Below, piece after piece: positions 5,341 through 33,389 of a DNA stretch of 64,000 nucleotides. Made by a program: the position numbers and the translations under genes. The DNA lies in assembly GCA_015680685.1 (NCBI GenBank), contig MNCI01001040.1:307492-371491 (forward strand), in the 5' to 3' direction. The DNA comes from Gnetum montanum. Taxonomy: Eukaryota > Plantae > Gnetophyta. Position 1 is the stretch's first letter, and each line of letters starts with the position of its first letter. The notes under the pieces were generated by a model, which worked only from the letters and a program-made list of their open reading frames with translations, did no database searches and was not told the origin of the DNA.

Positions 5341-5899
5341 TTTGCCTTGGTTCTACACTCTTCTACCTAGACACAATGATTATGGAGTTATTTTTAGGTT
5401 GGCTGATGAAAAAGAATATCATTATGACCAAGGCAAGAACCTCTTATTAATGGGATGAGTGGATGGATGACGTGGTCTCACTATATGAATAATCAATCCC
5501 TTATGATTTAACAACATAGAGAAAACCTCACCTCAATGGGCAAAATGATCATTTTATTCAAAAGTAAGATTACATAACAAAGAAAATGAAAATAAAAAAA
5601 TTGAAAAAGTTTGAAGGAATTAGAAAAACTATATCAAAAAATAAGAAATTGACAAAAAAAGTGTAAAAATAAATGAAAAACACTTATGAATCTTGAAGAT
5701 TAGAATGGGGGGTGTCTCCTATGACTAAAGATTTGGTTGTGATGAGGCTTAATAAGTTAATAGATAGGATCCATGCATGTATAAAACATTGGTAACCTTT
5801 CATTACCTAATCATTGGGTGTGTTTTAATGTTGTAATGGTTGGGTAGACAAATTGTTGATCACATACTTCATTGTTAAATGTATGGTGGGTTAGGATAT

Positions 5900-8173
5900 G
5901 AGGTGTGTTAATGTGACGGATGTCTAGCCCATGATTGCACCCTTGATCATGATATGGTATGCATGGATTTTTGGTCTTACCACACTTGTAGATTCATTTC
6001 TTGGGTTTGTAATTGGAGTAACAATGGATGGTGCCCCTTGTGTAGGATCAGAGGATGGTGGTGGTGAAAAGGGAGGCATTGAACTAAAATGGCATTATGC
6101 TAGTTCAAATGATGTGGTAAATCCATGAGTGTTTTGCTTTAGCTTATGTCCTTTCCTAAAGAAGGGACATTTCTAATGTGTTAGTTGGGATGTATTGGTG
6201 TTAGCATGTCTATGCACATTTGTAGCACAAGTGACATTTTTTTTGTTGATATTGTGGTGCTAAATGTTCTTGTGTCACTGGTGATGGTGTGTAATGAGGT
6301 GGAGTATGAGAATATAGAGGGTAGGATGGATGGTAAGAGGCACGGTATGGTGATCCCTTAGGGGATTTCATGGGTTGATGGTACTTGAGAAAGTGATAGT
6401 GGTGATTTAAAGTAGAGGATGTACAACTACTTGGAGAACAAGGTGTTGAACATAATATCCATGCGATTTTGCAGATAGGAAGGATAGGGATGATTTGGTG
6501 GTGGCCTCCTCCATGACTATGGTTGTTGCCACTATGATTGTTGACAATGCTAAGGCTAGTAATAAGTCCCCATAGGAGAGTACGGTTGGTTGTGGGGTTG
6601 TCTATGATTACTATATGGGGAGGGAAATTTGCCAAGCATGTGCTTCTATACAAACTTTAGATTTAAGGCACCTATCCAATACTCATGTAGATGCATCAAG
6701 ATTGGGTGGTGCCCTTTGGATGATCATATATGTAGATTTCACCTCCATTATCTTGTCTATGGTTGGTTCTATAGCCTTACTTCCTTCAGCTCTTTTTCCT
6801 ATTTACTGAAAAATGTTCTTAGCTATTTCTTTGTTATGTATCCTTTGTTTATTGCGACTACTTGGATTTTTTTGCATGATTCTCTCCTCAACCATCTCAA
6901 TAAGAGTTGTAATGTTTTGATATATCCATTTTAACATCCTATTAAACTTTGCATCAAGTTCATCAATAGACTTTTGTATCAATAAGGTTCGTTGTAGAAT
7001 CACCTCATCGAGAGTAGTTTCTTTCTCCTTACCATAGATATGGACCTCTTTCTATTGAAGAGTAGGGTCCCACTGATATTTTTTAAACATTTTTCCATTT
7101 TCATATCTCTCATTCTTCTTTTTCCATACACTTGATTAACTCTTGGATCTAATGGGCTTATAGGTCATACATCCCAAGTGTCTTCCTCATTTCATTACAA
7201 AGCCCATCTATCATGTGGAAGAGTTTCCTTTTCTTAGAGAAACCATGGCCTAGGCATCTATTTAATAGGGAATAATATCTATCTAAGGCCATGTCTAGGG
7301 GTTTATGTTGTTCTTGTCTCCACCCTTGGATTTTTTTCCTCTGCACAGGTCTAGTATTTCTTGTTGAAGAGTTCTAGCATTGTGCATCATCGTTGGATTG
7401 AATTTGGCTTTAACAATCTATTCCACACTTTGGCTCTATCAATCAGTGTCCTAGGAAAGAGTTTAAGCTTTTGTCATCCACTTTCAACGTTGTAATAAAC
7501 ATAGGCATCATGGAAGGCTTGTAATAATGATATGGATCTGAATCATAGTCTCTTGCAAATTTAGGAATATTATTCATATCAAGCCTTGGTAGGTGACACT
7601 CTTTATGATGCTTGCAAGATATCCTAACTACCTTTCTGATTTTCATTAGGCTATTAGTGTCCAACAAGGGTTCATTGTTGTTAGATAGGTTGTGAGGAAG
7701 ATTTCTATTTCTATTCATTTAATCATGATGATGTTGTTTATGTTCATGTTGATGTCTTTGATTTCTCCCATGGGTTTGACCATTTTTTTTATTCCAACCC
7801 TCTAGTGGAACTTTATCTCCATCCTACATTCATCTTCATCAAAAGTAGACATTGAAAGGGAATAGGAAGATCCAAAACTAGAAGGATTACCATGGATTCT
7901 ATGGTGTTCCCTAAGGTCCCTTGATTTATTCTTTCTAAATTTCAAGGAGGTCCTAGGCCTTGAGGCCTCCCCTGGTCCAAGACTTATTTCATCTCCTCCA
8001 AGGTTATCTACCTTAGGTGAATTTAGTCTTTGAGTGTTGTTAGGATGGTCATGAACATAAGTAATCCTTTCATAAGGTTGGTCACTCCAATTTTCCTCAC
8101 CATATATCTCATTAGTTCTCTAATGAATGTTTTTGTTATACAGTGCATTATCACTTCCTTGTGAAAGAGACAT
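5900..8173 (-). pseudogene. gag: Decayed gag of element A
   Basis: ATG at 8173 follows the PBS. YYSLLNRCLGHGFS..MIDGL is homologous to C gag (YYSWLHRCLGHGFS..IIDGL). Cys/His knuckle-like CHLCYKC near 6220. Confidence 0.75.
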
Positions 8174-8298: not shown

Positions 8299-9094
8299 TG
8301 ATGAGTGGTGAGGTACCCCTATGCCCAACCATACAAATCATAAGTGTTCATGCACAATTCAATCAAAATTTATGGATGGAACTAGTTGTGCATCTAAATT
8401 GTTATGCTTTGATTGTAGTTTGTTGTCTTGCCACATGTACTAGTGGTAACTTTTTCACGTATGGTTTAGTCCAAATTGAGGCATACAATGTTATCTAATC
8501 CTATGCTACTCATAATGATGATAAAGAGATAAATTAATTAAGTTAATGAAAAATGGAAAATAAGATCTAAACTAGCCTATTTGTGATGAGTATCCATCCC
8601 TAATCATTTGTACATGCCTTAGAATTCATATAACTACTACTGGGATTGCCAGGCGTATGTCACTGGGTGTGCCAAACAATACACTGCTAGATTACCAAGT
8701 ACTTACACTTAAGCACTTGTGATCAGATGTACTCATTTTTCTTAATGACAAGAATTGTAAATAGTAATAAATGAAATTATTAACTAAGGAAAATAGTAAA
8801 TAATTAAATAATTAACAATTAAAAGCAATAATAACCTAAGTGGATGCTACAATGATGGAAGTAATCATTATCTTTATTTCTAGTCATGTAATGTGTTCAA
8901 GTATGCCACACTCGAATAAGAATGTTGTACAATTACAAACATCACGCTATGGGCATGCACTAGGAATAACAAAACTTGAATTCAGAAATCTAAGAAAGGC
9001 TATAAAAAACTAATAACTAAAAATTATGTCCCAACCATGCACCCAAGTGTTATATTAATAGGGTAGCATAGAAGAGATGATATTGAATATCTAA
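8299..9094 (-). repeat. 5' LTR of element A, main part (continues at 28414-28505 beyond nested B)
   Basis: Homologous to 394-1160. Interrupted at ...ATATCTAA and resumes CATCATTTCTTGGGACC at 28414. Confidence 0.9.
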
Positions 9095-11018
9095 TGAAAC
9101 ACCACCAATTTCAAGCTTCTACAGTTTCAACAAAAAATTTGTCTAAGTGTCAAAACTTGACAAATTTCTTCTATGTGTTTGTGCTATGCTCTCTAGCATA
9201 GGTAGCATAGCACACATCAAGGCCTATTTTGAAAAATTTTTCTAAGTATCAGCAAAAATCACATGAAAATTTTTCTAAGTATCCAGCTATGCTCTAAATC
9301 TACCTACTATGCTCCCTAGCATAGCCAGTGTAGCACACTCTTCCATGACCAGTTTGGCCAAAGTGCCAAGCCAAAAGTGATCAAGGTTACTTGGGATGAA
9401 TGAAATAGTTCAACAAATTTTCTATCTCCTGGGTTGTCACACTTGCTACACTTCCCAACATAGCTAGGGTAGCACATGATCTAGTGGATAGTTCCCCCAA
9501 GTACCAAGCTAGAGTTTGTCAGTATTGCTCAAGATGGAAAAAATAGTTTGGCAAATTTTCTATCTCTTGGGTTGATATGCTTTGCTATGTTCCCTAGCGT
9601 AGCTAGCATAGCACAAGTTCTAGTTCTCAATTTTCCTAAGTGTTTGATGAGGATCTGTCAAGCTAGCTCGACATGGAAGACACATTTGGCACATCTTCTA
9701 ACTTCCAAGGCTACCTTTCCTGCTAGGCCCAAGAGCGTAGCCAATGTACCATGATAGAAGACTGTAGATTTTGTCAAAATTTGACTAAGTGTTCCTGCTA
9801 CACTACTACACTCCCCAGCATAGCTAGCATAACCAATGTTAAATATATAAATTTTGTAAAGTTTTACTAAGTGTTGTGTTACACTCTAGAGCGTAGCCAA
9901 CATGACACTAGAGAAAAGCCTCTAATAGCCTCCAAAATCCTCTAGAACTTGGCATCGACCTTCATCTCAACTCTGATGTTCCTTTGACAACCAAAATCAT
10001 TATTTTGCATCCCCTTTTGCACCCCCGTTGGTCCCCAATATTGTTCCTACACTTTACCCTACTCAAAATAGGGAAAGACGTAGTCTCAGAGCATAGCCTC
10101 CAAGTTGTGTTGTTTTTGCATTCCTTGTAGGTACATTGTGATCTTTTCAAACTTTGGAACATACAATCCATGTAGTGTAGTCATAATTTAGTAGTCTCTA
10201 GGGACCTATTATTATTCTTTAGAGTGTAACACTTTGTGACTCTCATGAGAGCATAACATGTCAACGTAACCCCATCTACACTTATTCCATGTGGCACCCA
10301 TGTCACATGGTGCCCAATCCGCTTTTCACACTAAACCTAGCCCTATAAATACCATGATGTTTAGCACTTTAGGGGTTGGAAAATCAAAAGAGCATTGGCC
10401 ATTTTCACTTTCTAAGCATCCTTTGCACTTTTGCACTTAAGCACCTGAGCTTTGTACCTTGGAACCTTCTAAAACGTAGTCCATCATTGCACTCACAAAA
10501 CATAGCAATAATCGACCTAGTAGGTTTAGTCCCCATGGTAGTCATTAGCTCCACATCTCGGGCATCCCAAAGATTGTGACTACACTACTACACTACCACT
10601 ATGCCTACCTATACACCACATACCATTCTCACCTCTCTTCCTACAATAGCTATGCTCCCCTTTTTGGGGTGGTGCATTTTTCGTTCTCAAGATCTATTCC
10701 ATTTTTTCAAAAATTTTTCCTTGATATTAAGCATAACTTTTACATTTTTTTTACTATTTGATATGTATTTTCACACTCACATCACTGTTCTTAGGTTGAG
10801 ACACCCTGCTACACCCTGGCTTAGTCAATCCTAGTATCCGCATGTAATGTAGTATAAATCCTTTTTACACATGGTTATTTTAACAACATGTAAGTCTCTA
10901 TCTGATTGCATAGATTGTCATTTTTGTTTCCTAGCATGGCCCTCATATAGATTTAGGGTTAGGCTGTACACCCACCAACCTCTGGATATTCTAGCTACTG
11001 ATGTTTTTGAATGTCACA
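9095..11018 (+). repeat. 5' LTR of element B
   Basis: TGAAACACC...TGTCACA, colinear with 26481-28408. TATA-like CCTATAAATA near 10342. Confidence 0.95.
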
Positions 11019-11023
11019 ATTTT

Positions 11024-11042
11024 TGGTGCTAAAAGGAGGGCC
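11024..11042 (+). other. Primer-binding site of B
   Basis: TGGTGCTAAAAGGAGGGCC lies 5 nt after the LTR. The same motif follows the 5' LTRs of D and E. Confidence 0.75.
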
Positions 11043-11470
11043 TTCCATTCCTTTTGTGTTCAATGGTAGTCCCACATGCTTTTTGCACCCCTATTACTAA
11101 TGGTAATCTAGCGTAGATGTAACACTCGTGGACATACCATGGTAGTAGATAGATCATAGGCCAGCATAGGAGTTTTTGCATTTTAGTTTGTGTAGATTGA
11201 TCCTAGTTGTCGGTTCTTCTGGAACCCTATAGGATGAAAGCCCAACTGTGTCTATATTGTCAAGATTTGAGTGTTCTGGAGAGCATAACAACCCCTTAGA
11301 GCATAATAGGCATAACATCAAAGTTAGTCACTTTTTAATAGCATTTCTAGAGTTAGTCATTTTTTGACCTATTTTCACAGTTTTCATACCTAGCCATTTT
11401 CTCAACTTTTTCTACATTTAATCATTTTTTATTCAGTGTTGTCTTTCCTAAAGCTTTTCTACATGGTAAC

Positions 11471-14400
11471 ATGAATCCTATGAACCCTTCAACTTCTGCT
11501 CTGAGCATGGAGGTAGCTCATCCCATCCAATAGGTGGTAGACATCAAGCCACTGCCCAATCTTGTACAACCACAATAGTAGTCACTCAGGTTGCATAGCC
11601 AACCACCTGAATATAGGGCGTTGGACGATGAAAGATACAACTTTCTTTATGCAAATATGAAGGTGGGTCTATCCTTAGACTGCCAAGAAATAGATGTAAA
11701 GCATACCTTTGAAATCATTCATTGGAATAGGAAGGAGTTCTTTCCTACACCTAACACATTCATCCTACTCATTAACACCTTCAGGTGGTTATTAGACCAA
11801 CTCATTAGAGTAAGTGGGTTGAAAGAGCAAGATGTAACATTAAACTATGATGTGCCCTTGTAGGATGGGCAAGATGAGTTTGAAGCTTATTTAGAGAGTA
11901 GTATCCTATTCTACAACTTTTTCCAACAGCCCATCTCTAGCTTTGTCCCACACCAATCACAATCATCTACCTTCTTTAAGATAGTAGTGTCACTCTTGTC
12001 ATCCAAGTCAACACCTATGGTAGCTAGCACCAGGTTTTGCATGCATAAGGTGTAAGATCCTCTACCACTTTCTCCTTTTTCATCTACTCCCAATCTATGT
12101 AGCCTTCCCTACTAGCATCCATGATGTTGACATTGTTGTATGTGCACATGATGCCTATATCTTAGTCATAAACAAGTTAGGTGTCTTTCATTCCAACAAT
12201 CCTAGTAGCACCTCCAACAAGAGCCCAAGCCACAACCACATGGTGGTCCATGTACTTTGTGCCTATGACACAGTGATCACACATTCCACAATACACACAA
12301 CAATAGAATCAACAAGCATCCCATGTGGTGGTGCAGCCCACAGCTGGAATATGGACTGCTCAAATAGCACCATAGGTAGCACAACTAGTGCAACCTACTG
12401 CATCATCCTCGAGTTTGGATCAAGCATTCCAACTCATTCAAACCCTCATGGAGGAAGTTAGATGACTCAAAGTAGCCAACTTAGAAATGGTCCATGTGAT
12501 GGACTTCTACCACAGTAACCCTATCAGTCTTATGGTCTTGCCACTAACTCTACCTCCTGAAGTCTAACTACCTCAATTCACAAAATACAATGGTGAGGGG
12601 GATCCCAATGCCTACCTTATAACTTTTTATTATGAATGACTACTTCTACAAGCATGGCCACATGCAATCATCTATGTCTTTTCCATGTCCTTGATAGGCA
12701 AAGCTCTTGATTGGTATCATGCACTTCCTAGAGCTTCCATATTAACTTTGGAGTAGCTACTCAGCCAATTTGAACTTGCTTCAAGTATAACTTAAAGCCT
12801 AAGGACATCCTAGACCAATTAATGAACATCAAGAAAGAAGTGCTAGAACTAGTGCAAAACTTCATAGAATGTTGGAGCACTTCCCTCAATGAAATCTATG
12901 ATCTAATCATAGAAACTTACCTACTAGCTATCTTCAAAGGTGCTGTAAATGACTTTATTATGTCAAAACTATATTATTTAGTCCCACACTCTCTTAGCAA
13001 ACCTTTTGCTCAAACAAAGAGCATACAGGATGTAGTAGAGGCTAGTAAGGACCTAGCCTATGTGGCCTAAAAAAATGCATACATGAAAAAGGACAAGGAA
13101 AAGAAGAAGGCAATAGCAACCATTGCAGTTGTGGCTAATGAAGCCAAACCCAATGACACTAAACCAATGGCCAAGGCACTTAAAGCCTCAACTAGTAACA
13201 ACAAAGCATTGGGTTCTAGCACTCTAGGAACCAACTAGCCCACACCATTGATGACCTTGAGGCAAGCTCCCCAATGGCCAAACTTTAAGCACAAGGATCG
13301 CTCAAAGTATACCCCCTTGCCCATCTAGCTATCTAAGCTCTTGGACTAGTTGCTTTGTGCTAGACGCATCCAACACAAGAAAATGTCTGAGGATGCACAT
13401 AAGTACCATGAAAGGTACTGCGAGGTCCTTAGAAATCCCTCCATAGCTATGTCAAATTAGTCCCCAATCCCTAAAAACTTTAGATTGGACCAATTCTACA
13501 ACTATCACCAGTTGCATGGCCATGATACTGACTACTACTTGGCATTAAAAGATAACATTCAACACATGATTAATCAAGGAAAATTGGTCCTTGATGAGAG
13601 CAATCCTATACGACCAAAAAATAAATCAATGAAAATTTACAAGGATCCCCTCAATGCTAGCAGTGTAGGTTACATCATCAATGCTATCAGCATTGATGAC
13701 AATGCAGGACTGGCACATGAATCATTTGTGGTTCGTGTGCCCTCTGGTGACGCTAGGGTCTCAACGTCAACTAGACCACAACCCCCTTTTATCATCAAAG
13801 TAACACCTCATGCGCTCATAAAACCCTTTGCGGTTAGGGCCCCACAACACATTGTGGTGATGGCAATCCAAACAACTTTTTTCATTAGGGTGCCAAGATG
13901 TGTGGACCCCTCACCTACCTAGGGTCCAATGGTGGGAATTGCATCACATCCTACCCATCCAAAGTCATATCCTAAGAGATCTAATGATCATCTAGCTAAC
14001 AAAATAATCATGGAATGTATGGAATTAGGTCATCCTAAGCTTTTCCCCTTGTCAACCATCCCAATGGCCTCATCATCTCGAATTTCCAACTTGAATGCAA
14101 ACAACCAAAAAATGAGTACTGAGGCTTGGAAGCCTACGACAAAACCAAAGGCTAAATGCCCTCCCTAGGAGATTCATCTCTTGGGTCAGATGGAGGAGGT
14201 AAAGGCCACCAAAATAATAGATAGTAGAAAAGATTTCTTGGATGCACTAGCACAAGTTAAACAAGCTCTCAAACAAAAGAACATGACTTTGAGCCTGTAC
14301 AACTTGATAATGACTTCCTCTACTCATCGCGATGCATTAGTTCACATGCTAATATTTATTCTTGTTAAGGAAGAAATTTTTTGTAGATGAAAAAGCCATT

Positions 14401-15160
14401 CACATGATAATGATTCCCCCCACAACCCAAGAGTCAAGGTCAACACCCTTGACATTTCATGATGAGGTGGTCAAGGTTGATCTTGAAAAGGGTTAGGTAA
14501 CTAGTGCACCCATGTTTATAACAATTTGTGTAGGCTAGTATAAAATTCGTAGGGTACATATTGATGATAGGGTGGCAACCAATGTCATCCCATTCACCAT
14601 TGTTGATAAACTTGGCTTGGCTAATCAGATCAAGTTGACAAAAATAATGTGCTTGAAATCCTTTAATGGAGCACATGTTGTTGTAAAGGGAACAGTGATG
14701 ATAGCTTTTATGGTAGGAGAAAAATTCCCCACTACCGTTGAGTTCATTGTGATTGAAGAAATGCTAGGATTCAACCTAATCCTAGGGAGGTCTTGGTTAG
14801 CCTAGTTACAAGTTGTTTCTTCACTTATTCATCAAGAGATCCACTTGCCCTGTGAGGGTGAAGAGGTGGTGATCTATGGTGACAATGTAACTCCCCCAAA
14901 CATCAACATTTTTAACATAGAACAAGGGCAAGAAGTAGAGTTCTCTAAGGACACACCACCAATTTAGGGTGAGGGCCAATATTGTCTGGTTGATCTACCT
15001 AAATAACCAAGTGAAATGAGCCACCTCCTTGAGGGAGCTATTTGGGTAGAATTTCCCTTTTGTGCAATAGACGAAGGTCTAGGTGAATACTGTCATGTGC
15101 CTCCCAAGCCTTATGTGCCTCCTAATCCACATTAGGTTAGAAAACACTTACATGACTAAG
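11471..15160 (+). pseudogene. gag: Decayed gag-protease of element B
   Basis: KYNGEGDPNAYL gag motif (~12585); YNYHQLHGHDTDYY knuckle remnant; protease HIDD..ATNVI...FNLILGRSWL (14557-14800). Confidence 0.85.
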
Positions 15161-15320
15161 GTATCCCCTTAGTTTGTCTACATGTTTTTCTTGCTTCTTG
15201 TTCTTTTCTTGAATAGTTATTTTTGTATTGTTATTTGCATCTTGAATTAGTTATGTCATTTCTTTAGTTTACATAATCTTGTTTAGAATTTTTATTTTCA
15301 AATAGAAAATAAAAAAAAAT

Positions 15321-15545
15321 TGGCCTTCTAAGGCCTAAAATTGGAAACCTACTCCCTTGTATGCTATAGCCCAAAAAGGCCTTAAACTATCACATGGCTA
15401 GATAAGGCCTAAAACTAGCAACTTCCTTTCTAGAAATGGCTCAAAATGGCCCTAAACTAGTGATAGCCTAAAATGGCCTTAAACTAGTGATGGCCATTCT
15501 GCCATGGCCTTAAACTGGCATGGAGCCCATAAGGGGCTTAATTGC
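15321..15545 (+). repeat. Array of TGGCC-loop-GGCC-TTAAACTRG units (B, after protease)
   Basis: About 6-7 units with variable spacers. Equivalent arrays at 37063-37171 (D) and 46190-46425 (E, minus). Confidence 0.85.
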
Positions 15546-15721
15546 ATCAATCATATCACACGTTAAAATTACAACAACATAATATACAACAAACTGATAC
15601 ACAAATAATCATCACATTTTTATTAAGTTAGTAATAAAATATATAACTAAAGTTTACGTTCAAGATAAAAATTGCCAAAAAACACAAAATTTCCCAATAA
15701 TAGGGCTACATTCTGGGCATT

Positions 15722-18700
15722 TCAGCCTATAGTGTTTAGTGGGGGCTAGGGCTCTTCCTCTTCCTCTTCATCCATTGCTCCGCTAGGGCCTGCGCCATCA
15801 CTCGAAACCTACATTAAATAAAAATAAAATAATAAATTGGCTAACAAATAAAGTGACATGCAACATTATAATACAATAAATAAAAATAATTCAAACTAGA
15901 CCAACCTAAGAAGGACCTACATCCATGTTTGGGGGCATCCTATCAAGGCCCACCTCCAAATGTTAGAGGATTTCATCCTTTAATAGTCATGTCCAATCCT
16001 CCTTGCCCATGTCAATTTCTATGAGGGTCTTTCTTGTCTCTATAGCTATCCATGAGGGTAGCCTTGGTGAAAACCTAGTATAAGTGACCTTTCTTGAAGG
16101 TACAATGATGTGTCTCTTTGGTTCCTCTCACCACTATGTGATGGGAAAATAGTTCATAAGCCTATGTTGTGCTAATTGCATCAAGAAATATGTCTTGGTA
16201 ATGATGCTCCATGGACTTACCCTTGTACCTCTTAAGGTACGCCTCACATTCCTGCTTATAGTGATGCTTATGATTCTTTTAAGTCTAGCCCCATTAATAC
16301 ACTTTTGCACTGTAATCCTTCCAGTCTTAGTTCTTCCTTGCTAGTAGGTCCATCTACAACTATTGTTCAATCACCTTCCTAGTGGCCTCATTCTTACCCA
16401 AAATGGATGATTAATACTTAGCATAGTTAATTTTAGCTATGTGCTAGGTACCATTAGGTTTGTCACGTGCCACCAGGAAGTCATAATGGGATTACAGGTC
16501 CTCCAATCTTACATCTTGGCTTTCCCCCCTTCTCTTGGAGCTCATGCACCTATTTCCATAGATGCTTGTTAATGCACTTGCACTCCCACAATGCTCTCAT
16601 AGATGAAAGCACACATATGCTTTCCTTATCATACATGTGGCAAGGCATTTTCTCCACCTCAAGGAAAAACTTAGGCACAACATCAACTTGGACCACCCTG
16701 TTTGAGTCCCACCAAAGTTGTGAACCTATTATCACATAATAGGCAAAGCAACATTAGACATGAACCAAGCAGTAAATCTATAGAAAAAATAGATAAATAT
16801 AGACATACCAATATTAGGGTCCATTTGTTGTATATATTCCATCATGTCATCCACCAAGCCTTGCATAAAAGCAAACTTATTTGGAGCCGTTGTCCATGGT
16901 TGCATACGGAAGGTGGATGTAGACATTGGGCACTCAGTGGAAGCATTGATAGTTGCAACATGATGCACTTAATAATTATTAGGTAATACAATAGCCAAGG
17001 GCTAAAGAAAAATAAAAATAAAAATAAATAGATGGTGGTGCAAAGCTCCTACCCAACAAGCCCTCAAATGTGAGAGTGGAGGATCACCCATTTACATGCT
17101 GTCAAAGAAATTTTCAAACTCACCCTTGTCAAACTACAACAACCCTTCTTCCTCAAGTTTCTATAGCACCTTTGTAGCTTCTTGTTCATCTTTGCCTAGT
17201 ACTTGTCCCTTAGGCTAAGGAGGGACATTATCCTCTATGGGCTCTGCTACTACTGCATGGGCCCTTTTGCCTACATCATATAAGTTAAATTAGAAATTTC
17301 AATTATGAGCATAGTATAGCATGATATGTTATAGTAGTATCCAATAATTCATACTAGTGATTTCTAAGTGTGCATTGTGAAGCTTAGAAAAGATCCTTTT
17401 ACCACTCTTCCCTACTTCACGTACGGGCTCCTCTATGGGGTGTGGTTTCTTAATCCTTTTTCTAGATGACCCCACTACCTTAGCAATGAGTCATGCCCCT
17501 CTCACTCTATTCCTAGTGTTGGTTGGTGGGGCCTCCCATACACTATCATGTGTGTAATGGGATTGTCCCACATTGCCTCTAGTCATTACAAAGAATGACT
17601 CACTAATCGCCTTTGGAGGATCCCATGACCATGTAGTGTTGAACAAGTGATGGATCCATGGCTTAGAGATTTGCCTGTAGTCTTGCACCACCCACCACCC
17701 TTCCTCATGAACCACCAAAAACTCCAAAAACCTTCACAGGCATGCTACAAATCTCAACATGAAGGCCACTAGCAAGGTAAGAGACCCAATTTTACTACAT
17801 CCCCTCCTCTATTACATCCCTCATCACCCAAGCTTGTTCCACCCCAAGAAGTTTTCCTTAGGAGAGTAGCTTTGGGAATGCATGAGCATGAAAGATTGGA
17901 TAGAGGTGGTGGACTATGGACACCTTCACTTCCTTGATTGGTATGCCTTTATAGACCTTAGAAGTGCCCAACCACTTATCAACGTCCCATCTGTGGTCTA
18001 TGTCTTTGCAATTTTTTCTACAATTGGTGGACTCTTAGAGGTGATGCCAAAGAGGTTTGCAAAAAATTCATTCATAATTTCAAAGGTCATCCACACACCA
18101 TGAACTTGTGTCATGAAGGGATTAGCACTCTCACTAAAGGAGTTAATGATGGTAATCATGTTGACCACTAGGATGCTTGGGCTAATGACCATGAAAAGAT
18201 CCATTAACCCAACTCATTGAAGCTTTCTAGTTATTTCCACTAGGGCCTTGTAGCACAACTAATGTTGTGAACTCTCAACCTCATCATATTTCATGATGAA
18301 GGTGGCCTTAGTGTGGCCTGTTGTGATCATTGTGACCTCTCTTGACTTAACTATAGTTGTAATAGGCAAAAGTCAAGTTAGAAACATGAGAAAAGCTAAG
18401 CAAGAAACACATAAAAAATGAATGATGCACTACCCACATGTCGAAAATGGTATGTGGGATAGTGGTGGTGGGGTTGAAACCTCCTCCATGCTCAGTATGT
18501 TGCTCACCCACTCAGCATCCAACTAGCTGAGAACCTAACACCTCTCATAAGACTTAGATAATCGATGAGAGAGTTTTGCTAGGTTTTCCCCAATTTTCCC
18601 AATCATTGTCGTATGAACATTCTCAAAAGATAAGAATTCTTGTAGGGTAGTGAGAGTCAAGTTCAATGTCCCCTCCTCATCATGGAGGCCATTTGCATCA

Positions 18701-19423
18701 ATGGTAAACCTAGCAATGGACATGAGTAGTTAGCATATTAATATGAGTCATATTCAAGTGAATAGTTCAAGAATCATAAGAGAACTCACCTACCAACATA
18801 ATATACCATCCTAGGTGGGTTCTGAAAAAGAGTATGTATGCATCGGGAAATGAACAACGTGTTGCTCTTATTGTAGCATTGGAATTCTAGCATCTCCTAG
18901 ATCTTGGACAAAGGCCTAAGGCCTTTGTGGGCTCGGCTTGAACTCCCTACTCCTTCATCACTAGCAAGCTCATTAGATATGAACCTTATGATGCATTGAT
19001 TCACCCCAAGCAATAGAAGTTCTGTTATGATGCCTATTGCTTCTATTGCCAAGTGTGACCATATCATCACACTAAAGTAGTGAAGCAAAAATTCCAAGAA
19101 TTATTGTGCTCCCAACCTAAACCATACTACTTGGTGAGCTATACATGTGTCTGGTTTAAGTACGTTTTGAACAGGCTCACTCATGCAACATAGAATACCC
19201 TCCAGCTTAACCATGATGAGGATGGGTTTTAATAGTACCTTGTAGCCATAGTAGTGATAAGAAGAGAATGTTAACATTGGATAAAAAGTGAAAAAAAGAT
19301 GTACAAAAAATTAGACTCAACATATTAGGAAAATTCATAACTTTCCCACTAAGCTCCACAGGAAAGGAACGTTAGCATATCCATCTGACATGCCTAGTTC
19401 CCAATGGGGCATAACACTAACAT
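15722..19423 (-). pseudogene. Antisense spliced accessory gene of element B: FCP1/NIF-like HAD domain + plant-transposon-protein-like domain + charged C-terminus (now carries stops)
   Basis: Exons: 19423-19321, 19238-18790, 18709-18434, 18350-17355, 17270-17053, 16968-16809, 16725-15906, 15808-15722. Introns are 80-97 bp with GT..AG ends (two sites mutated). 6 of 7 junctions keep the frame. AATAAA on minus at 15624-15619. Confidence 0.8.
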
Positions 19424-19860
19424 CTATGTTTCACATTAAGAAACATTATAACTTTGGAAATATAAAAAAATTCACTAATTGTTGATTACGCTCCCCATAG
19501 AGTGTAACCTTCAAAATTATCAAAAAGAAAAAAAAACATTCTAAGTGTTGGTTACATTCCTTGTCGAGCATAATAACTGCAAAAAATTCTAAGTGCTGGC
19601 TATGCTCCCCACTAAGTGTAACAACTACAAAAATTTCCAACTACCAAAAAATTTCAAACTATTGGTTACACTCACTGTAGAGTATAACTAGTTAACTATG
19701 TTACCTACAGAGTGTGACACTAGAAGATCAAAATTTATTTTTTAACTTTTTTTTTTGTTATGCTTTTAGGAATGTACCCTAGTGTGACAGATGTGGCCTT
19801 CATCATCATCCTACTTGGACCATTACGCTCTCTATTCACCTTCAAGCTACCTTGGTCTCT

Positions 19861-20163
19861 ATCCCATGTCATGCATGGGATGCCAAAGATCCCTATCCTA
19901 TGTCATATGCAGGATGCTAAAAAACTCTATTCCACATCATGCATGGGATGCCAAAACACTTTTTTCTATGTCATGTGTGGGATGCCAAAAAAGTCTATCC
20001 CATGCCCTGCATGGGATGCCAAAAAAATTTATCCCACATCACGTGTAGGATGCCAAAAAACTCTATCCTATGTTGCACATGGGATGCCAAAAAACTCTAT
20101 CCCATGTCACATGTGGGATGCCAAAAAAAAATTTTCCACACTATGTGTGGGCTGAAAAACTCT
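19861..20163. repeat. Tandem repeat, about 9 x 34 bp, each unit with internal inverted repeat ATCCCA-N9-TGGGAT
   Basis: Consensus close to ATCCCATGTCACGCATGGGATGCCAAAAAACTCT. Units start near 19861, 19895, 19929, 19964, 19997, 20031, 20065, 20099 and 20135. Confidence 0.9.
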
Positions 20164-21123
20164 ATCTTATAGCATGCACATTACACAAAAAAAATAGAAA
20201 AAAACGCCCTCACAACAAAAACTTAGAAATCCACAAAATCCACCACATACATTCCCTTCCCTGGCTGTGACTCATGGTACTCATTGTAGTAGTGGTAGTC
20301 CCTACCCAAGGCTAGCCATCTCCAAAACCCCAAAACCTTGAGGTGAAGAAGAAAAAAGGAAAGAAAACATAAGAGAAGACCATATCACTTTAGCTTGTTG
20401 ATGACATCTCCCTTTGGTCCTCTATGCATGCCCTAGGAAGATGCCTTCATGTGCATCCTCCTTCATCCACATTGGTCAATTTAGGGAGTTGGTGTTTACT
20501 ATAATGTGTCATGGCTAAATGATTATGATCTTATTTTACTTTTTCCCTTTACTATGCTCTAGCTTCCTTTCTTTAGTTGCTACACTCTACTTCCCTTCAC
20601 CTTGGCTACACTATGCTCGATGACTGTTTATTTCAACTTTGAAAATGAAAAATTGACAATGGTAAAACTTTTGTTTATACTCTTCCAGGGTGAAGGACAC
20701 ATCACCCTCCTAGGTCCTGTCCTATGCCCCACATGTAACGTAGGACTATCCCATGTCCTGCACGTAACGTGGGATGAGCATAGCACCCAGTGTTAGAAAT
20801 TTTTTTCAACTTTTCTAGCATCTCCATACTTAGAAATTTTTTTGCATTTTCCTGGTTTCCCAATAAACACCCAACCTAATTCCACATTTAAAACCTTCCA
20901 AGCCCTACCTAAACCAATTCATCTTGCACAAACCATGGTCTGCTACAACCTTAAACTAGAAATCCTAGGGCCAATGAAGACCCCAAAATTAATTTACATA
21001 CTTGCTATATTAGATCCCAAAACTACACAGTTAGGTGAATTTTCATAACATTTTCTTCCTTATTTTATGCATTATACCTTATTAAGATAGGTGCATCTTG
21101 ACATTATTTTGGTTGTTTTGTAG

Positions 21124-24100
21124 GATGTTTTGGCAAGATTATAGAATGAATGCATACGAGCATCTTCATTCACCTTTGGCCTTGACTAGACCTTATGGTA
21201 ATTCCATGAGATGCATAAATATTGAGCTCATAGAATTTGAACCTATGACTTATGACATAAACATAGCATCCCTAGAGATATCTCTACATTGGCCAAATCA
21301 TCTAGTTAGAGCTCTAAACCTAGAGGTAGGTGACTAAGGATCATCTCATAGAAGTCCTTGTAGCAACAAGTAAAGGCGAGGTGAAGACATTCAAGCTTAG
21401 TTTCTTGTTAGAGCCTCAAATCAAATAGAGCATCTCAAAAATTCTCAACGATAACATTAAGGCATTCACATGGTCCTACAAGGCATGCCAAGCTTGGACC
21501 CTCACATAATACAACAGAACATTATCCTTGATCCTCACATAAAACAAATCAAATAAAAGGCTCGTAAGGTGAAACTTGAGGTGGTGTTGGTAGTTCGTGA
21601 TGAAATCACTAAACTTTACAAACCTAGTTTCATTTGAGTAGTTGATTATACTGATTAGGTTTCAAACACCATAGTTGTCCCTAAGAAAAATGGAAGTATA
21701 TGCATTTGTATAGACTTCCTAGATCCAAACAAGATGACCATCAAAGATAACTTCCCATTACCTAGTATTGACCAACTCATCGATACTACAGTTAGTCATG
21801 CCTTGTTGTCCTTTATGGATGGGTTCTTAGGGTACAACCAAATCTAGATCAACCTAGAGCACTAGCTCAACACCACCTTCATGAGTCCTTGGGGTACATT
21901 TTGCTACACTATGATGCCCTTTAAACTGAATGTAGGAGCAACCTACCAACGTGCAATGACATATATCTTTAGTGATTATCTATTAGACTTGCTTAATAAC
22001 TATGTTGATGATAAAGCAATTAAGTGAAAAGTTGCTCATGACCATGTATATGACTTGGACTACATCCTCAAACATTTCCTTAAACATGATCTTAGATTAA
22101 ATCCCAAGAAGTGTGTCTTCGGCGTTAAGACTGGTCGCATGCTAAGCTTTGTAGTTCTAGAAGTAGGTATACATGTAGACCCTGATAAGGTTAAGGGTAT
22201 CACTAACTTAGCACCACTAACAAACCTTAAGGAGCTATGTAGGTTATAAGATAGATTACAATTCATATGTAGGTTTATCATTAAGTTGACTAATAAGTTG
22301 TAGCCAATGCAACATTTTTTAAAAAAGGGGATCCACTTTGAGTGGATAGCTCAATGCCAAGAGGCATTTGACATCCTCAAAAAGGAGCTAGCTCAACTTC
22401 CAATAGTTTACCTTTTGCAAGGAGATAAACCATTATACATTTACCTTGCAACCTCAAACATGTCCATTGCTTCTTTGCTTTTCCAAAAGTGAGATGATGG
22501 CTTAGAAGTCCCTATTTACTACTTGAGCTATGCACTAGTGGCCCACAAGGCAAAATACAATGATGTAAAGAAGAACTATCTCACCTTAGTCTTCAAACTT
22601 AAGAAATGGAGACATTATCTCTTCCACGGTTAGGTTAACATTATCTACAAAAGCAACATACTTCGGGTGATTACTACAAACATATATGAAAGTAGTCGAA
22701 TCGCACGATGGAAGGCAATAACCACAAAGTTTGACCTACACTACATAGGACAAGCATCCACAGAGGGTTAAGCAATAGCCAAATAACTCATGGCTTCACC
22801 CATAAATGATCAAGCAATAATAGATCCCAAATTTTTGGATGAGCATGTCAATAGCATAAGCCAAGTGCCTATAAACTTCAAGGTAGTTTTACACTTTGAT
22901 GGTGCTTCAACCACACAATGTGGTAGTGTTGCTTTTGTTATCACATTTCCCTCCAGGGAGATCCAACCCTTCATGTATCATTTTGCATTTCCTTGCATAA
23001 ACAACATGGTAGAGTACGAAGGTCTCCTTAGAGGTGTCTTTGTAGCTCATAATTTAGGAATCCAAAACATAGCAATCCAAGGTGATTTGTAGCTTGTTGT
23101 CAACCAAGTCATAGAGGTTTATGCTTGCAAAGCATAACATTTACAACCATACTATGATTTGGTGAAACACTTACTCAAAAAATTTGCAACTGTAGACATC
23201 CAACACATTCCCCATACTGAAAATGTCGTTGTTGATGCATTAGCCACTTTAGCCTTAAGCATAGCACCTAACATGTTATTTGCCTTGCCTACTTCAATAG
23301 TGGATTGCGCCAAACCTATCACACAAACAACAAGCATTGCATCCATAGATATGACAAGCATAGCTCATGCCCAAGAGTGGTATGATGATATTAAGATGTA
23401 TTTCCAATAAGATGAGCCTCTGCAAAATCTAACTTCTGCTCAAAAAGGCATTGTGAAAAAATGATCATAGTAGTACTTCCTAGTAGGTGATGATGCCTTG
23501 TGTCATAGATCCTATGCTGGAATACTGTTAGCTTGCATTAGTGGTAGTGAAGCACAAACGATCGTCAATCAAGTCCATGAGGAACTATGCGGAGGCCACA
23601 TAGCACCTAGGGTAATGGTACCAAAAATCAGATGCTTAGGCTACTATTGGTCTTACATGGAATGTGACTACATTTATAAGGTCAAAACATGTGATGTGTG
23701 TTAGCGACATGGTAACCTAATGCATGTGTCATCTTCTGAACTACATACTACGTAGATCACATGGCCATTCCAACATTGGGGATTGGATATCATAGGACCT
23801 ATAATGCCTAAGTCTTATGTAGGAAATAGCTTCATTATAACCACAACCAAATACTTTACCAAGTGGGTTGAAGTTGTTCCCCTTAGGAAGACAACATCAT
23901 AACAGGTTTACAAATTTATTTTAGACAACATAGTAACTTGATTTGGTTTACCGATGACTATAGTCACAGACAACGGGCCATAATTTAGTAGTGTAAAACT
24001 AAATCCTTCTATGAACACCTTGGCATCAAACATTCCTTTTCATCACCATACTATCCATAGGAAAATGGCTAAGTAGAGGCTACAAACAAAGTCATCATCA

Positions 24101-24617
24101 AGCTTTTGAAGAGGATGCTTAGCAATAGCAAGTGACAATGGCATGAACAACTAGTGTACACATTATGGGCCTACCATACGACATGTAGAACAACAATAGG
24201 TAAAATGCCATATAGTTCATATATGGATTTGAAGCAATGTTACTTGTTAAACTGCAGGTCCCATCACTCTGTATGATCCTCTCGAGCTTCATTGATGAGG
24301 TTCATAATAATGAGTTTAGAACCATTGACCTCAACTCTATAGAGGAGGAGGGCATGTAAACACTTGATCACATTGAGTCGTACTAGGAAAAACAATGGCA
24401 AAAGCACCATCACAATTAGCATCAACACCCGATCAAGAAAGGAGACCTTATCCTCAAGGTCGTTCATGAGCCTATGGATAAATTCTTAGCTAATTGGGAA
24501 AATCCCTTCTTGGTTATAAATTCCTATGATAATGGAGCATTCAAGTTTGCTAATCTAGATGATAATGAGTTTTCCTTTCCAATTAACCACTCATACTTGA
24601 AGCCATACTACACTTAG
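21124..24617 (+). pseudogene. pol: Decayed pol of element B (RT, RNase H, archaeal-type RNase H, integrase)
   Basis: VVPKKNG..CIDF; SFMDGF.GYNQI; YVDD at 22001; NPKKCVFGV; aRH HFDGAS...NNMVEYEGL...IQGD; INT HEELCGGH...C..C, WGLDIIG, TDNGP. Confidence 0.95.
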
Positions 24618-24662
24618 TACACAGTGCTGTGACAACGACAAAGAAAGATAAGTGAACATTCA

Positions 24663-24935
24663 TTATGATGTTAAACTGGCACAGAACATCCACTATGATG
24701 TTAAACTGGCATAAAATGTCCTTGGGTTATGACATTAAACTGGCACCCACAGCATGGTATGCTATGACCTTAAATTGGTAATCCACCATTTGCTATGATG
24801 ATAAACTAGCACAGTGGTCTACTAGGATCTTAAACTAGCACATCACAATCTGCCCAGACCTTAAACTGGGTTCATGGTCTACTAGGACCTTAAACTAGCA
24901 TAACATGTAGTCTACCAAGATCTAAAACTAGGTTC
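24663..24935 (+). repeat. 3' UTR array of B: about 9 copies of a ~19 bp motif (CTAYGAYNTTAAACTRGCA) with 10-16 bp variable spacers
   Basis: Read directly. Equivalent arrays at 37352-37605 (D) and 45795-45990 (E, minus). Confidence 0.85.
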
Positions 24936-26465
24936 ACATATCAACATTCATAGTTCAACACACATAGTTCTATGAACAAGAGAATGTAAATACTTCTAAC
25001 CATCTATCGCCTACTCACACCTCTTAGGCAAGGTGGGGTTGAGTGTTGCAGTTCTAGAATGAAGTTCATGTCATCAAGGAAAAACCCTCTAGAAAATTTG
25101 TAGTGTCATTATCCTTAGCATCTTGTTGATCTTTTAGAGATGCCTTTAGGCATCTTGCTTACCTTTTAGAGTTGCCACCACCATCGTCAGTCATTTTGGT
25201 CAGAGTTGTCACCATCAACATCACTTGCTTGAGAACCAAAGGTACTATGGCCCAACCATAGCACTACCATCCTCCATCCCTCACCATTACCTAAGCTTAG
25301 AAGATCATCCAGTAGTGTGATTCTCCATCATGCTACTAGGTTTACTAGCTCCTGTCCTTGGTGAGGACTCCCGAGCACTTGCATCACCAACTTATTTAGC
25401 CACTTGAGTGCTCACTTCTAGTGTGGCTGTTGTAGGTTTTGCACCTACACTGGCCTTCTTGCTTTGGATACTACGTGTACCTATAATTGACATAGCACTC
25501 ATGACCCTTACAATGCCCTTGCAGATAGGACTTTTCCTTCATCTCACATGGTATGGTTTTTTTTCTTGTTTTCTCTATGTTGCATTTGCAAAATGAAGCC
25601 TCAGTGGCATTGCTCAAGGAGGGGTTTCATTATGGTGATAGGTCACCACACTACTCCAATGTGTCTACTTTTGACTCACCATGCTACTTAAAAGTGCACA
25701 TCCTCATTATCCCAATATAGCTTGCTCGCATTTACCTCTTGACCTTACATCTTCTTGCATTCCCTATAAGCTTTTTTGATGCACATAGCATACTTCTTTC
25801 AATCAACTGTAGGATCCATGGTGAATGTAATGCAAAATGTCTCATGATGGACCTTTGTGGGTTGGTCAAAGCTCCAAGTGGATGTAACAGAACTCATCTC
25901 GGGGAGGAAACACCTATCCTACAGATGCGACATGGTTGCTTTTAAGCAAATTTTGTTTAATGGTGCGTAGTCCACCTAGCAACAAAAAATTCTAAAAAAA
26001 AATGAGACTAAATGAAAAAAGAAACAAGAGAGGAAAAAGAAAATAGAAAGACAAAAGAAAAATAAAACCAAGAGCAAAAGAAAAATGGGATGAAACAAGT
26101 GTCCAAGTAAAAATAGCAAAGTTGCCATTTTGCAATTGGTCCAACCCTAGATTGACCATCTCACAAGCATTATGATGAGAGGTCAAAATCCCAAGGGTAG
26201 GCCATCTCCGCATGCTAACTCCCTCAAAAGCACTTTGAAAAGGGATCATGCTTTGGCACCAAGCCATTATAATGCTGCATCCTACAACCACATATACAAT
26301 GAACATCCTTCCCACTTGTTATCCCTTGATCCATCTCCCTAACCTATTTCCTGCCACATCTTATTCCCTTAGCACTCTCAAGCATAGCAAAGCATTGTCT
26401 AATTGGGCACTGATAAGCAATGTTGGTGTTTGTCAACGTCTCTTAGGCCAATCCTCCAAATGTCA

Positions 26466-26480
26466 ACAAAGAGTGGACAA
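26466..26480 (+). other. Polypurine tract of B
   Basis: ACAAAGAGTGGACAA directly before the 3' LTR. D and E have ACAAAGAGGGTCCAA and ACAAAGAGGGGTCAA. Confidence 0.75.
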
Positions 26481-28408
26481 TGAAACACCACCAATTTCGG
26501 GCTACTAAAAATTCAACAACAAATTTGTATAAGTGTCAAAACTTGGTAAATCTTTTCTAAGTGTTTGTGCTATTCTCTCTAGTGTAGCCAACGTAGCACA
26601 CATCAAGGCCTATTTGGAAAAATATTTCTAAGTGTCAATAGAAGTTGCATGAAAATTTTTCTAAGTGTCCAACTACGCTCTGAATCTACCTACTATGCTC
26701 CCCAGTGTAGCTAGCATAGCATACTTTTCCATGACTAGTTTGTCCAAAGTGCCAAGCCAGTAGTGATCAAGGTTTCTTGGGATGAACAAAATAGTTCAGA
26801 AAATTTTCTATCTCCTAGGTTTTCATGCTTGCTACGGTCCCCAATGTAGCCAGGGTAGCACATGATCCAGTGGATAGTTTCCCCAAGTACCAAGCTAGAG
26901 TTTGTCAGTATTGCTTGGGATGCATAAAATAGTTTGGCAAATTTTCTATCTCTTAGATTACTACACTCCCCAACATAGCCAACGTAGCACAAGTTTTAGT
27001 TCCTAGTTTTTCCTAAGTGTTGGATGAGGATCTGTTAAGCTAGTTTGACATGAAAGACACATTTGGCACATTTTCTAACTTCCGAGGCTACCTTTCTTTC
27101 TTTGCCCCAGAGCATAGCCAGTGTACCATGAAGGAAGACTACAAATTTTGTCAAAATTTGGCTAAGTATCCCTATTACAATATGCTATGCTCCCTAGTTT
27201 AGCCAGCATGACCAATGTTAAACATCAAAATTTTGCAAATTTTCACTAAGTGTTGTGTTATGCTCTAGAGCGTAGACAACTTGACACTAGAGAAAAGCCT
27301 TCGGCAGCCTTCAAAAGCCTCTAGAACTTGGCATAGACCTTCATCTCAAACCTGATGTTCTTTTAGTTACCAAGATCCTCAATTTTCATCCCATTTTGCA
27401 CCTCCATTGGTCCTCAAAATTGTTCCTATGCTTGACCCTACTCAAAAGAGGGGAAGACGTAGTCTCGGAGTGTAGCCTCCAAGTTGCATTGTTTTTGCAT
27501 TATTTGTAGGTACATTGTGGTCTTTTCAAACTTTGGCACATGTAGTTCAGGAGGTGTATTCATAGTTCAGTAGTCTCTAAAGACCCATTGCTATTCTTTA
27601 GAGCATAACACTTTGGTACTCTCATGAGAGCATAAAATGTTACCGTAACCCCATCTATGCTCATGACATGTGGCACCCATGCCATGTGGTGCTCGACCCA
27701 CATTTCACGCTAAACCTAGCCTTATAAATACCTTGACATTCAGAACTCTAGGGGTTGACAAATCAAAAGAGCATTGGACATTTTAACATTTTGAGCATCC
27801 TTTGCACTCTTGCACTTGAGCACCTAAGCTTTGCACCTTGACACCTTCCAAAACGTAGTCCACCATTGCACCTATAGAACACAATAATAGCCAACCTAGC
27901 AGGTTTAGTTCCCATATTAGCCATTAGCTCCATATCCCAAGCATCCCAGATACTATGACTACACTACTACATTGCCATTGTGCCTAACTATACACCACGT
28001 ACCATTCTCACCTCTCTTCCTACAATAGCTATGCTTCCCTTTTTGGGGTGGTGCATTTTTCATTCTCAAGATTTATTCCATTTTTCTAATCATTTTTCTT
28101 TGATATTCAGCATAGATCTTATGTTTTTTCTACTATTTGATATGTATTTGCACACTCACATCACTGTTCTTAGGTTGGGATGCCCCGCTATACTCTGGCT
28201 TAGTCAGTCCAGGAGTTCACACATAATGTAGTATAAACCCTTTCTACACATAGTCATTTTAACACCACATAAGTCCCTATTTGATCAAGTAGAACATTTA
28301 GGACACCTTGTTTCTACTTTCTAGCATAGCCCTCCCACAGATTCAAGGTTAGGTAATATGCTTACCAACCTCTCGGTGTTTTAGCCACCAATGTTTTTGG
28401 TCATCACA
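26481..28408 (+). repeat. 3' LTR of element B
   Basis: TGAAACACC...CATCACA followed by TSD TCTAA. Confidence 0.95.
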
Positions 28409-29125
28409 TCTAACATCATTTCTTGGGACCCGATATCATGTATCTGATATTAGAGCCTCATTATCAAGTATCTGGTATCAAGGTTGACATAATGATGACT
28501 CATTACTAGCTATATTTATGGTTCCATTTGATTGATCCCTTTGCCAAAATCTTGGTAGTTTTTTCTTGTATAACTTAGAAATATTTTTTCTATAAGTACC
28601 TACAATATGGATTGAATTGATTATATGGAATTTTATTTGAGTGTAATATGTATCTAGACAAAGTTTCATGAGTGGTAATAAAATTAAGATTTCTTTTATC
28701 CATTCTAGCACTTAGATTAGTTTAAGTCTATTTTTTTGTATTTTACTTGAAATTTAGTTTACTTTATTGTTCTTAAGCATTTAATATGTTAATTCATAAG
28801 TAACATGAGTACGACCACTTCTATCATAACATACTAACACTTGATAATCACAATAGTGAATACTTGGTACACCCAACAATAAACACTTGGTAACCCAATA
28901 GTGTTAGTACATGTTTAGGATGTGTATAGAAAGTGGGAATGGATACTCCACATTTAGGATAGTTTAATTAATTAAGTAGCAAAATTAAATACAAAATCCT
29001 TTATTTAATCACTTTATAGATAAGTAAAATAACAAAATTTATAAATATAAATATCTTGCATCTAAATCACGCTTAGCTATATGAACCAATTTAACACAAG
29101 TGATGGTTGGAAAGACAATGACTAG

Positions 29126-29972
29126 TGTTGAGTCATAGTTGATTGAACTGCATCGACACAATTCCATTGATGCATGGTTTAATGTGTCAATGCATATGCA
29201 TTAACATAGTTTCTAGTCTTACCCATATAAATGTGTGCAGCTACCACATTTATGAAATTCATTCATTCATAGGTTAGCCAAACTTTTGTAGTTTTTTTAT
29301 TTGAGAGTTAGAATATTTTCTAAGTGCCTACAATAGGTGTTGAGATGTGTATGGATCCTTATTTGAGCACTGATGTACTTGGATACTTCAGTGTAAATGA
29401 CAATAAAGATAAGCTTTTTGATAAACTTTGTCTCTTTAATGCACTTTACTATTATGAAATTTACATAATATCTCTTTAATGCACTTTACTATCATGAAAT
29501 TTATTTTATTGGATTTAATTAATCAATTAATAAAAAAAGTAATTAACGCACATAAGTACGACCATCTCGAGCATACATTAATGCTTGGAAATCATAGTAA
29601 CACTTACACTTGGTAACATAGTAGTGTTGTAATGTGTTTAGGATGTGTAATGTAAATGGAAACAAATACCTATGGTAGGATTAGTTAGGCATTAATTAGT
29701 TCTTATATTAATTAAAAATTTAATCACTTTATTTTCTACATAGGTGAATTAAATGAAAAACATAAAAATTATATAAATCATATGCCTCAGTTATAGTTAA
29801 TCATATCCTTTAACCTCACAAGTGGAACTGGGAAGACAACTATTACATCCTTGAAATTCACTACCTAGATCAAGTGTAATTAGAGAGTTAAGGTCTATAG
29901 AATTTTATTAGATCACTTAGTGAACATTAGTGATTTATATTGTTGGGCATAGGGACTACCTGCTACTCATCA
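29126..29972 (+). repeat. 5' LTR of element C
   Basis: TGTTGAGTC...CTACTCATCA, colinear with 58595-59464. Confidence 0.93.
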
Positions 29973-33221: not shown

Positions 33222-33389
33222 GTAAAATGACACTAGAAGGAGGGCACTTTCTCTATTAGATCCACCTCTTAGCATCCCAGATCTAGCATTCACACATTGT
33301 TGTCATGTTCTTTCTTGAATCACAGCATCCAACACTTAATTTTCTCATCCAGATGCCCCATCCAACATCTAGACACTATGCCTTAGCTT

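Follow-up and report, generated by a model that had tools for sequence, protein, structure and literature searches.

A divergent NIF/FCP1-homology domain, apparently without catalytic function, in an antisense gene of an Ogre-like retrotransposon from Gnetum montanum

Ogre retrotransposons, as defined in a published survey, carry an archaeal-type RNase H (aRH) and, between protease and reverse transcriptase (RT), a spacer with a mean length of 274 bp, which in pea and Medicago is removed as an intron (PMC6317226). The survey also records antisense extra open reading frames (ORFs) in 60% of Ogre elements and a plant mobile domain (PMD) in the extra ORF of 57% (PMC6317226). The extra ORFs published for the wider Tat group are located either 5' of gag or in the interval from integrase to the 3' long terminal repeat (LTR). 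What Tat/Ogre extra ORFs do is a standing open question, since their products rarely resemble anything known. Here we describe a stretch of 64,000 nucleotides from Gnetum montanum (contig MNCI01001040.1, positions 307,492 to 371,491; hereafter the window, numbered from its first letter), in which an Ogre-like LTR retrotransposon holds an antisense, multi-exon cargo gene that encodes a NIF/FCP1-homology domain without the catalytic aspartates. Its host domain can be recognised and its pocket is defined, so partner and activity should be directly testable.

The cargo gene resembles the Ogre/Retand (Tat) extra ORFs, some with a plant mobile domain or Transposase_28, in combining an antisense accessory gene with tandem arrays (PMC6317226, PMC11963269 and PMC4408406). 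It differs in lying between protease and RT, outside the published extra-ORF positions, and in occupying a spacer of ~6 kb where 274 bp is the reported average. An intron-containing antisense gene in the likely protease-RT intron would be a way to carry multi-exon cargo with Gag-Pol expression undisturbed. In Phalaenopsis, a host regulatory enzyme domain, the AlkB/2-ODD m6A demethylase, is similarly fixed in a large Gypsy family; that domain shows catalytic activity in vitro and closely resembles host enzymes, whereas the NIF domain described here is divergent and without catalytic residues (PMC9289625). The Arabidopsis PMD-PP7/PP7L module (MAIN, MAIL1 and MAIL3) offers an analogy only: a domain derived from transposable elements (TEs) acts with, or is fused to, a phosphatase-family domain and controls transcription and TE silencing, but the phosphatase fold is a different one, the module is host-encoded, and it silences TEs (PMC7156037). 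Antisense extra ORFs in Ogre/Retand elements and host-enzyme capture by orchid Gypsy elements are thus already known. NIF does not appear in the domain table of PMC6317226, nor among the domains named in the accessible text of a 121-genome screen, its Supplementary Figure 1 of rarer domains aside (PMC9289625). A full-text literature search, with subscription papers outside its scope, returned no paper that describes either an LTR retrotransposon with a NIF domain or an additional gene within the protease-RT intron.

The NIF/FCP1-homology exon spans positions 18790 to 19238 on the minus strand. Its frame, read from 19238, gives VLLKPILIMVKLEGIL...NPPRMVYYVG and is interrupted by two stops over its 149 codons, where the two alternative frames have 13 and 14; the peptide and spliced exons quoted in an earlier note on this DNA are present in the window. 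When the exon was compared by phmmer with 1.84 billion representative proteins, eight matches were obtained at E<=0.001, seven of which have Pfam NIF above threshold (best NIF match 6.9e-7, with 26% identity over residues 7-144). Five of these seven alignments span at least residues 7-144, and every NIF motif is in register. The top match overall (P0001) was discounted as an unrelated repeat protein. Against a local profile of 10 NIF domains the exon scores 52 bits, a value inflated because the profile members were found with the exon as query, while 663 scored shuffles (of 1000) reach at most 8 bits. The same profile found nothing above 3 bits outside the exon among 858 six-frame pieces of the window. 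Despite ~75% amino-acid divergence, frame and motif spacing are kept over ~140 residues, with no frameshift.

An AlphaFold2 model of the exon, built with an eight-row alignment (pLDDT 73), was matched by Foldseek to CTDNEP1, SCP1, Fcp1, UBLCP1 and Tim50 at E values of 1e-5 to 4e-4 and TM scores of 0.53-0.68; this match to the HAD Rossmannoid fold is not independent evidence, because the homologous NIF rows of the alignment steer the predicted fold. In a Pfam scan of this decayed copy, NIF (PF03031) is the family that matched, over residues 31-65, and its 14.4 bits (E=0.031) miss the gathering cut-off of 21.8. A word-based protein search with the exon yielded 12 candidates, none at E<=10, and a sequence search of the PDB found no NIF protein, its best match (hyccin, E 0.03) being judged a chance likeness. 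The earlier note had called a NIF/HAD domain, with a Pfam scan and a structural comparison with SCP1/FCP1 as proposed checks. The call is borne out by the seven NIF proteins among the eight phmmer matches, by the profile score and by the SCP1/CTDNEP1/Fcp1-like model; the Pfam scan agrees in family and falls short in score. On these sequence comparisons, a divergent NIF/FCP1-homology domain at 19238-18790 is confirmed as a likeness beyond chance.

The closest relatives appear to be a plant and fungal NIF subfamily with D-x-N at motif I, and not the FCP1/SCP/CPL phosphatases of the RNA polymerase II (Pol II) C-terminal domain (CTD). Motif I of the first domain reads D-x-N in six of the seven NIF matches and D-x-D in one; four of the seven are plant-type proteins with tandem NIF domains, three of them named from Asteraceae. 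Such D-x-N proteins, for example Helianthus KAM0004709.1, are 23-27% identical to the exon over residues 5-145 and agree with it in the order and spacing of the motifs, among which are the KPDT..AV/VV stretch and Y..SNT..NPP. SCP1/CTDSP, Fcp1, CTDNEP1, UBLCP1 and Tim50 are alike in predicted fold but only 12-17% identical, and the exon is without the DxDx(T/V) of the active CTD phosphatases. Active CTD phosphatases carry BRCT domains (FCP1, CPL3/4) or double-stranded RNA-binding domains (CPL1/2); Pfam matched neither in the frames of the decayed cargo gene. We take the plant and fungal D-x-N proteins to be one subfamily, and this poorly studied group would be the most likely donor of the exon. 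Because the nearest relatives belong there, the earlier label of a Pol II CTD-phosphatase-like domain is weakened and has the shared fold as its sole ground.

Host and element-borne domains nevertheless differ. The first domains of the host D-x-N proteins retain D-x-N and DD, whereas all four positions are non-Asp in the retrotransposon exon, which is in addition TE-borne and joined to unrelated exons. Four host proteins from plants (P0002, the Helianthus protein above, to P0005) have a tandem pair of NIF domains; in all four the second domain has lost motif residues, and two of the proteins are fused to DUF724. The second NIF domain of one plant tandem protein has Glu at the nucleophile position. 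According to PMC13216928, fungal NIF proteins with DXNXT form a group of candidate pseudophosphatases. Tim50 of fungi lacks both the motif and activity, and so provides an earlier example of a binding role for a dead NIF domain.

The state of the catalytic positions in other copies was read from DNA contigs of four runs (three species labels, three studies) aligned to positions 18650-19300. Each run placed 2168-3061 contigs on these 651 bases, most of them less than 95% alike, which points to an old, high-copy family. The letters given below rest on the best 40 of 289 variant rows, each of which reaches at least ~57% in one or more runs, a floor drawn from 12 low-share rows that were examined. 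At position 11, the nucleophile (codon at 19208), the commonest residue is Glu, with 65-81% of depth in the four runs; at position 13, the acid/base (codon at 19202), it is Val, with 95-98%; and at position 131, the first of motif IV (codons 131-132 at 18848-18843), it is Ala, with 55-66%. A DNA depth spike at 19046-19089 (9,000-54,000 against 300-7,900 elsewhere), present in all four runs, is probably a cross-match to a very abundant repeat.

The reference copy itself reads K-L-E-G at motif I and S-R at the motif IV positions, and the codons reported earlier for them, AAG-CTG-GAG and TCC-CGA, are in the sequence. Since the commonest residues of other copies are Glu-11, Val-13 and Ala-131, the letters KLEG and SRC are partly private; what was reported of the motifs stands for the non-Asp state, which extends beyond this copy, and not for the precise letters. 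An A at the middle base of codons 131 and 132, needed for Asp, should be the dominant letter if Asp was ancestral, because A is not lost through cytosine deamination, and neither site is among the best 40 rows. No family consensus restoring DxD and DD was found, the commonest letters being Glu/Val and Ala, and the pseudo-enzyme state therefore looks family-wide in these contigs. Thus, the proposal that the catalytic aspartates were gone before this copy decayed is upheld by the other copies. The argument first offered for it, from deamination alone, is insufficient, because transversions affect 4% of sites between the two LTRs and codon 13 of the reference copy is one transversion away from Asp.

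HAD catalysis requires an Asp nucleophile and a Mg-binding motif IV. We considered whether the ancestral domain might still be an active or atypical phosphatase, either with Asp in older subfamilies or with Glu as the nucleophile. An acidic residue is indeed the commonest at the nucleophile position, an Asp codon at 11 could sit outside the best 40 rows, and PMC13216928, which gives DXDXT as the catalytic motif, records that some enzymes with non-canonical motifs stay active. The prevalence of Val at the acid/base position and the absence of the motif IV metal ligands tell against such an enzyme, and we judge it very unlikely.

Downstream of the NIF exon, an 80-nt GT..AG intron with a branch-point-like CTAAC (18710-18789, minus strand) leads to a second coding exon (18438-18709, minus strand; donor at 18437 or 18433) that reads RFTID...TLQEFLSFENV. 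This exon adds just 1.7 bits to the profile score (53.9 against 52.2; a shuffled exon gives a mean of 51.2, a 95th percentile of 53.0 and a 99th of 54.7), and the assignment of its first ~30 residues to the tail of the NIF domain is consequently only suggestive. Of the 291 codons in the third coding exon (17479-18351, minus strand), 11 are stops, and its other frames contain 21 and 27; the exon gave nothing significant in Pfam or the PDB, a best score of 0.76 in an atlas search (a lead only) and a single-sequence model with pLDDT 39. By eye we presume a resemblance to a plant mobile domain, for which Pfam gave no match. Coding remnants with probable small introns and predicted exon borders continue from 17400 to 15700 on the minus strand, with AATAAA at 15624; Pfam, the one resource scanned, found no known domain in them.

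A short upstream exon is predicted at 20251-20337 (minus strand), with a pyrimidine-rich acceptor and a GTATGT donor at 20250, and a 34-bp tandem array of eight copies (19857-20128) falls within what is predicted to be the first intron. The cargo protein has its NIF domain at the N-terminus or close to it. Further upstream, positions 20771-20876 (plus strand) match the LTR and the 5' leader repeats of a related element at 52436-42915 to 73-78% and may serve as the promoter of the antisense gene. Splice signals are intact in the reference copy. Stops occur at 2/149, 2/90 and 11/291 codons of the three cargo exons and at 23/839 in pol, with CpG depletion of 0.12-0.25 throughout, and the decay of the cargo gene matches that of its host element. 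At position 19240, in the acceptor of the NIF exon, 52-61% of the depth of other copies has another letter, so that in those copies the splice site would move by one base and a different frame of the upstream exon would be used.

The cargo gene sits in a block of ~5.4 kb (15521-20930, gene on the minus strand, borders approximate) that is absent from two relatives elsewhere in the window. The block begins at a post-protease tandem repeat array (15369-15520, plus strand; units at 15380, 15477 and 15508), also present in both relatives, and is followed by a T-rich tract with an AG acceptor (21040-21124, plus strand) that is conserved in both and is the predicted 3' end of the protease-RT intron. 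In the relatives, ~100-190 nt separate the last repeat unit from the acceptor, with no cargo between them. In the cargo element, one unit lies 167 nt before the acceptor and the preceding unit 5.4 kb further upstream, the array being split by the block.

We also considered a block of independent origin, in which a multi-copy element such as a non-autonomous CACTA, Mutator or Helitron, or a derivative of one, is nested in the Ogre intron with NIF in its own accessory gene. Accessory genes of DNA transposons typically have several exons, small introns and internal repeat arrays, as the cargo gene does, and the context has been seen for a single copy. Terminal inverted repeats joining the block ends are absent among the 25 longest of 198 pairs, CACTA/CACTG was not found near either border (termini that old copies can lose), and Pfam matched no transposase in the minus-strand frames of 15700-21300. 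The right edge is moreover built of Ogre-family LTR-like repeats (best E 1.6e-11, where any match arose in one of 20 shuffles, at E 0.002), and decay equals that of pol. We therefore consider a nested element unlikely.

The host element measures 19,314 bp (9095-28408) and is bounded by 1.9-kb LTRs (5' LTR 9095-11017, right end approximate; 3' LTR 26481-28408, preceded by a purine-rich tract; both plus strand) that are 82-83% identical (K2P 0.20). A 5-bp target-site duplication, TCTAA at 9090-9094 and 28409-28413, is of the length found in the Ogre clade. With plant substitution rates of 1.3e-8 to 2.2e-9 per site and year, the LTR divergence corresponds to an insertion about 8 to 46 million years ago. 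A 17-mer resembling a primer-binding site (11024-11040, plus strand), with a similar motif behind the 5' LTR in the related element at 31634, is presumably of tRNA-Arg type; ARAGORN found no tRNA genes in the window. The decayed gag and protease region (12400-15000, plus strand) was read from its translation, is ~60% identical in DNA to the same region of two relatives and gave no significant Pfam match.

Beyond the ~6-kb spacer, decayed RT, RNase H, archaeal-type RNase H and integrase domains follow in that order (21400-24600, plus strand; Pfam RVT_1, RT_RNaseH, RVT_3, Integrase_H2C2 and rve). The position of aRH between RNase H and integrase is that of the Ogre clade of OTA/Tat, a trait common to Retand, and a non-coding spacer, the predicted intron with an acceptor conserved in three elements, parting GAG-PROT from RT-RH-INT likewise fits that clade. 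We call the element Ogre-like because its RT is only 45-46% identical to its best matches and is unplaced on a tree of 34 of the 120 listed matches with no labelled reference set, where its branch of 1.87 falls in no supported set and the nearest rows are from Ginkgo and Cryptomeria. The earlier view of the NIF domain as part of the cargo of an LTR retrotransposon is supported.

Whether the domain was ever of use to the element is a separate matter. A piece of a host gene might have been captured by chance and have lost its active site neutrally before amplification, travelling as a passenger. Identity to host proteins is just 23-27%, the family is nearly silent in RNA, and two relatives transposed without the block, although these also lack pol and so moved in trans. 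Such a passenger would hardly be expected to keep frame and motif spacing over ~140 divergent residues, and one of the two stops is private to the reference copy, another letter occupying 84-86% of the depth of other copies; splice signals are intact as well. Among 29 exon sites in the best 40 rows, silent changes make up 7 of the 14 at low share, which split subfamilies, and 1 of the 15 at high share, which are private to the copy (Fisher test, p 0.014-0.09 depending on which of four cut-offs is used; p 0.011 by a rank test). This enrichment of silent changes among shared variants is suggestive of selection on the NIF exon, and we find a mere passenger rather improbable. A difference in DNA depth between exon and intron was dropped as evidence of selection, some exon bins being equally low (300 vs 219, run X1).

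With moderate confidence, we favour an antisense, multi-exon accessory gene of an Ogre-like element with a dead NIF module as its putative binding adaptor; the want of catalytic aspartates in the first domain is what makes a non-enzymatic role for the element likely. In this account, a gene of the plant D-x-N NIF subfamily would have been captured and fused to a TE-type gene. Lying in a sense-strand intron, the block would be lost from the pol message by splicing yet be packaged with genomic RNA that stays unspliced, and the introns of the cargo gene, being antisense, would survive reverse transcription; both steps we infer from established retroelement biology. Transcription of the cargo gene could start from the LTR-like sequence near 20800. 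In the reference copy the dead pocket still has Ser61 of motif II and, at motif III, a basic residue (Arg108). It might then bind a partner that is phosphorylated or acidic but leave it unhydrolysed, so that the remainder of the protein would be anchored to a host factor for transcription or silencing, in favour of expression of the element. This binding and tethering role is the weakest step and is put forward tentatively, with a host transcription or silencing factor as our best guess for the partner.

A phosphatase-family protein of the PMD modules, PP7L, is itself not known to be active. The earlier note had proposed a captured pseudo-phosphatase: a NIF-type domain in the element and the missing aspartates stand, the Pol II CTD label is weakened, and the deamination argument is insufficient by itself. 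Its phospho-CTD decoy remains putative, with the shared fold as its only footing. A bolder version, in which the NIF domain is a reader that traps phosphorylated Pol II CTD or a silencing factor, boosting or protecting transcription from a gene set antisense in the pol intron, seems to us improbable; if true, it would be an undescribed anti-silencing strategy of plant transposons.

Several observations weigh against the adaptor account and call for appropriate caution. The reference copy is dead, the family is old, and the adaptor role is a proposal from sequence. In four RNA runs, each read to 2-26% (~12.6-12.9 million records), only 43, 19, 110 and 34 reads fell on 4.2 kb, mostly partial, less than 90% alike and in both directions, and no splice joints were listed, including that of the 80-nt intron at 18710-18789; the family is nearly silent in these runs. 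The sense-strand protease-RT splice is a prediction for which no donor in the right phase was confirmed. Over the ~800 codons after the NIF domain, no domain was identified by Pfam or, for the third exon, in the PDB and atlas searches. The genomic context of the block comes from one copy, and contigs less than 80% identical to the exon fall outside the counts. At position 11, Asp could hide if split between two third-base letters, each below ~57%. Finally, the 7 silent changes of 14 are not significantly above the neutral 29% (p 0.11), and the low-/high-share split was chosen after the data were seen. At 18802, three RNA reads of run X13 share a loose end (agreement 0.77); judged by eye and unscored, it resembles the beginning of exon 2 better than it does the intron, which weakly hints that a diverged copy yields a spliced transcript.

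The window also holds features outside the cargo gene. The element was inserted in the second LTR of an older LTR element (396-1159, 8301-9094 and from 28414), whose other LTR displays the empty site. ORF-like remnants lie upstream of gag (11470-12050, plus strand) and, antisense, after integrase (25300-26000, minus strand); they are partly common to the relative at 52436-42915 and have no Pfam match. The two relatives (31634-41109, plus strand, and 52436-42915, minus strand) have gag-protease, the repeat array and the conserved acceptor, with no RT or integrase match to the cargo element, and are likely non-autonomous. In the relative at 31634, part of gag (34433-34892) is inverted with respect to the other two elements, and its LTRs contain 192-bp tandem units, two in the 5' LTR and six in the 3' LTR (31801-32177 and 38909-40046), a difference in count that reflects expansion or contraction after insertion. 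A further LTR-like pair (29170-29972 and 58681-59464, 80% identical) encloses both relatives, so that the window is a stack of nested elements.

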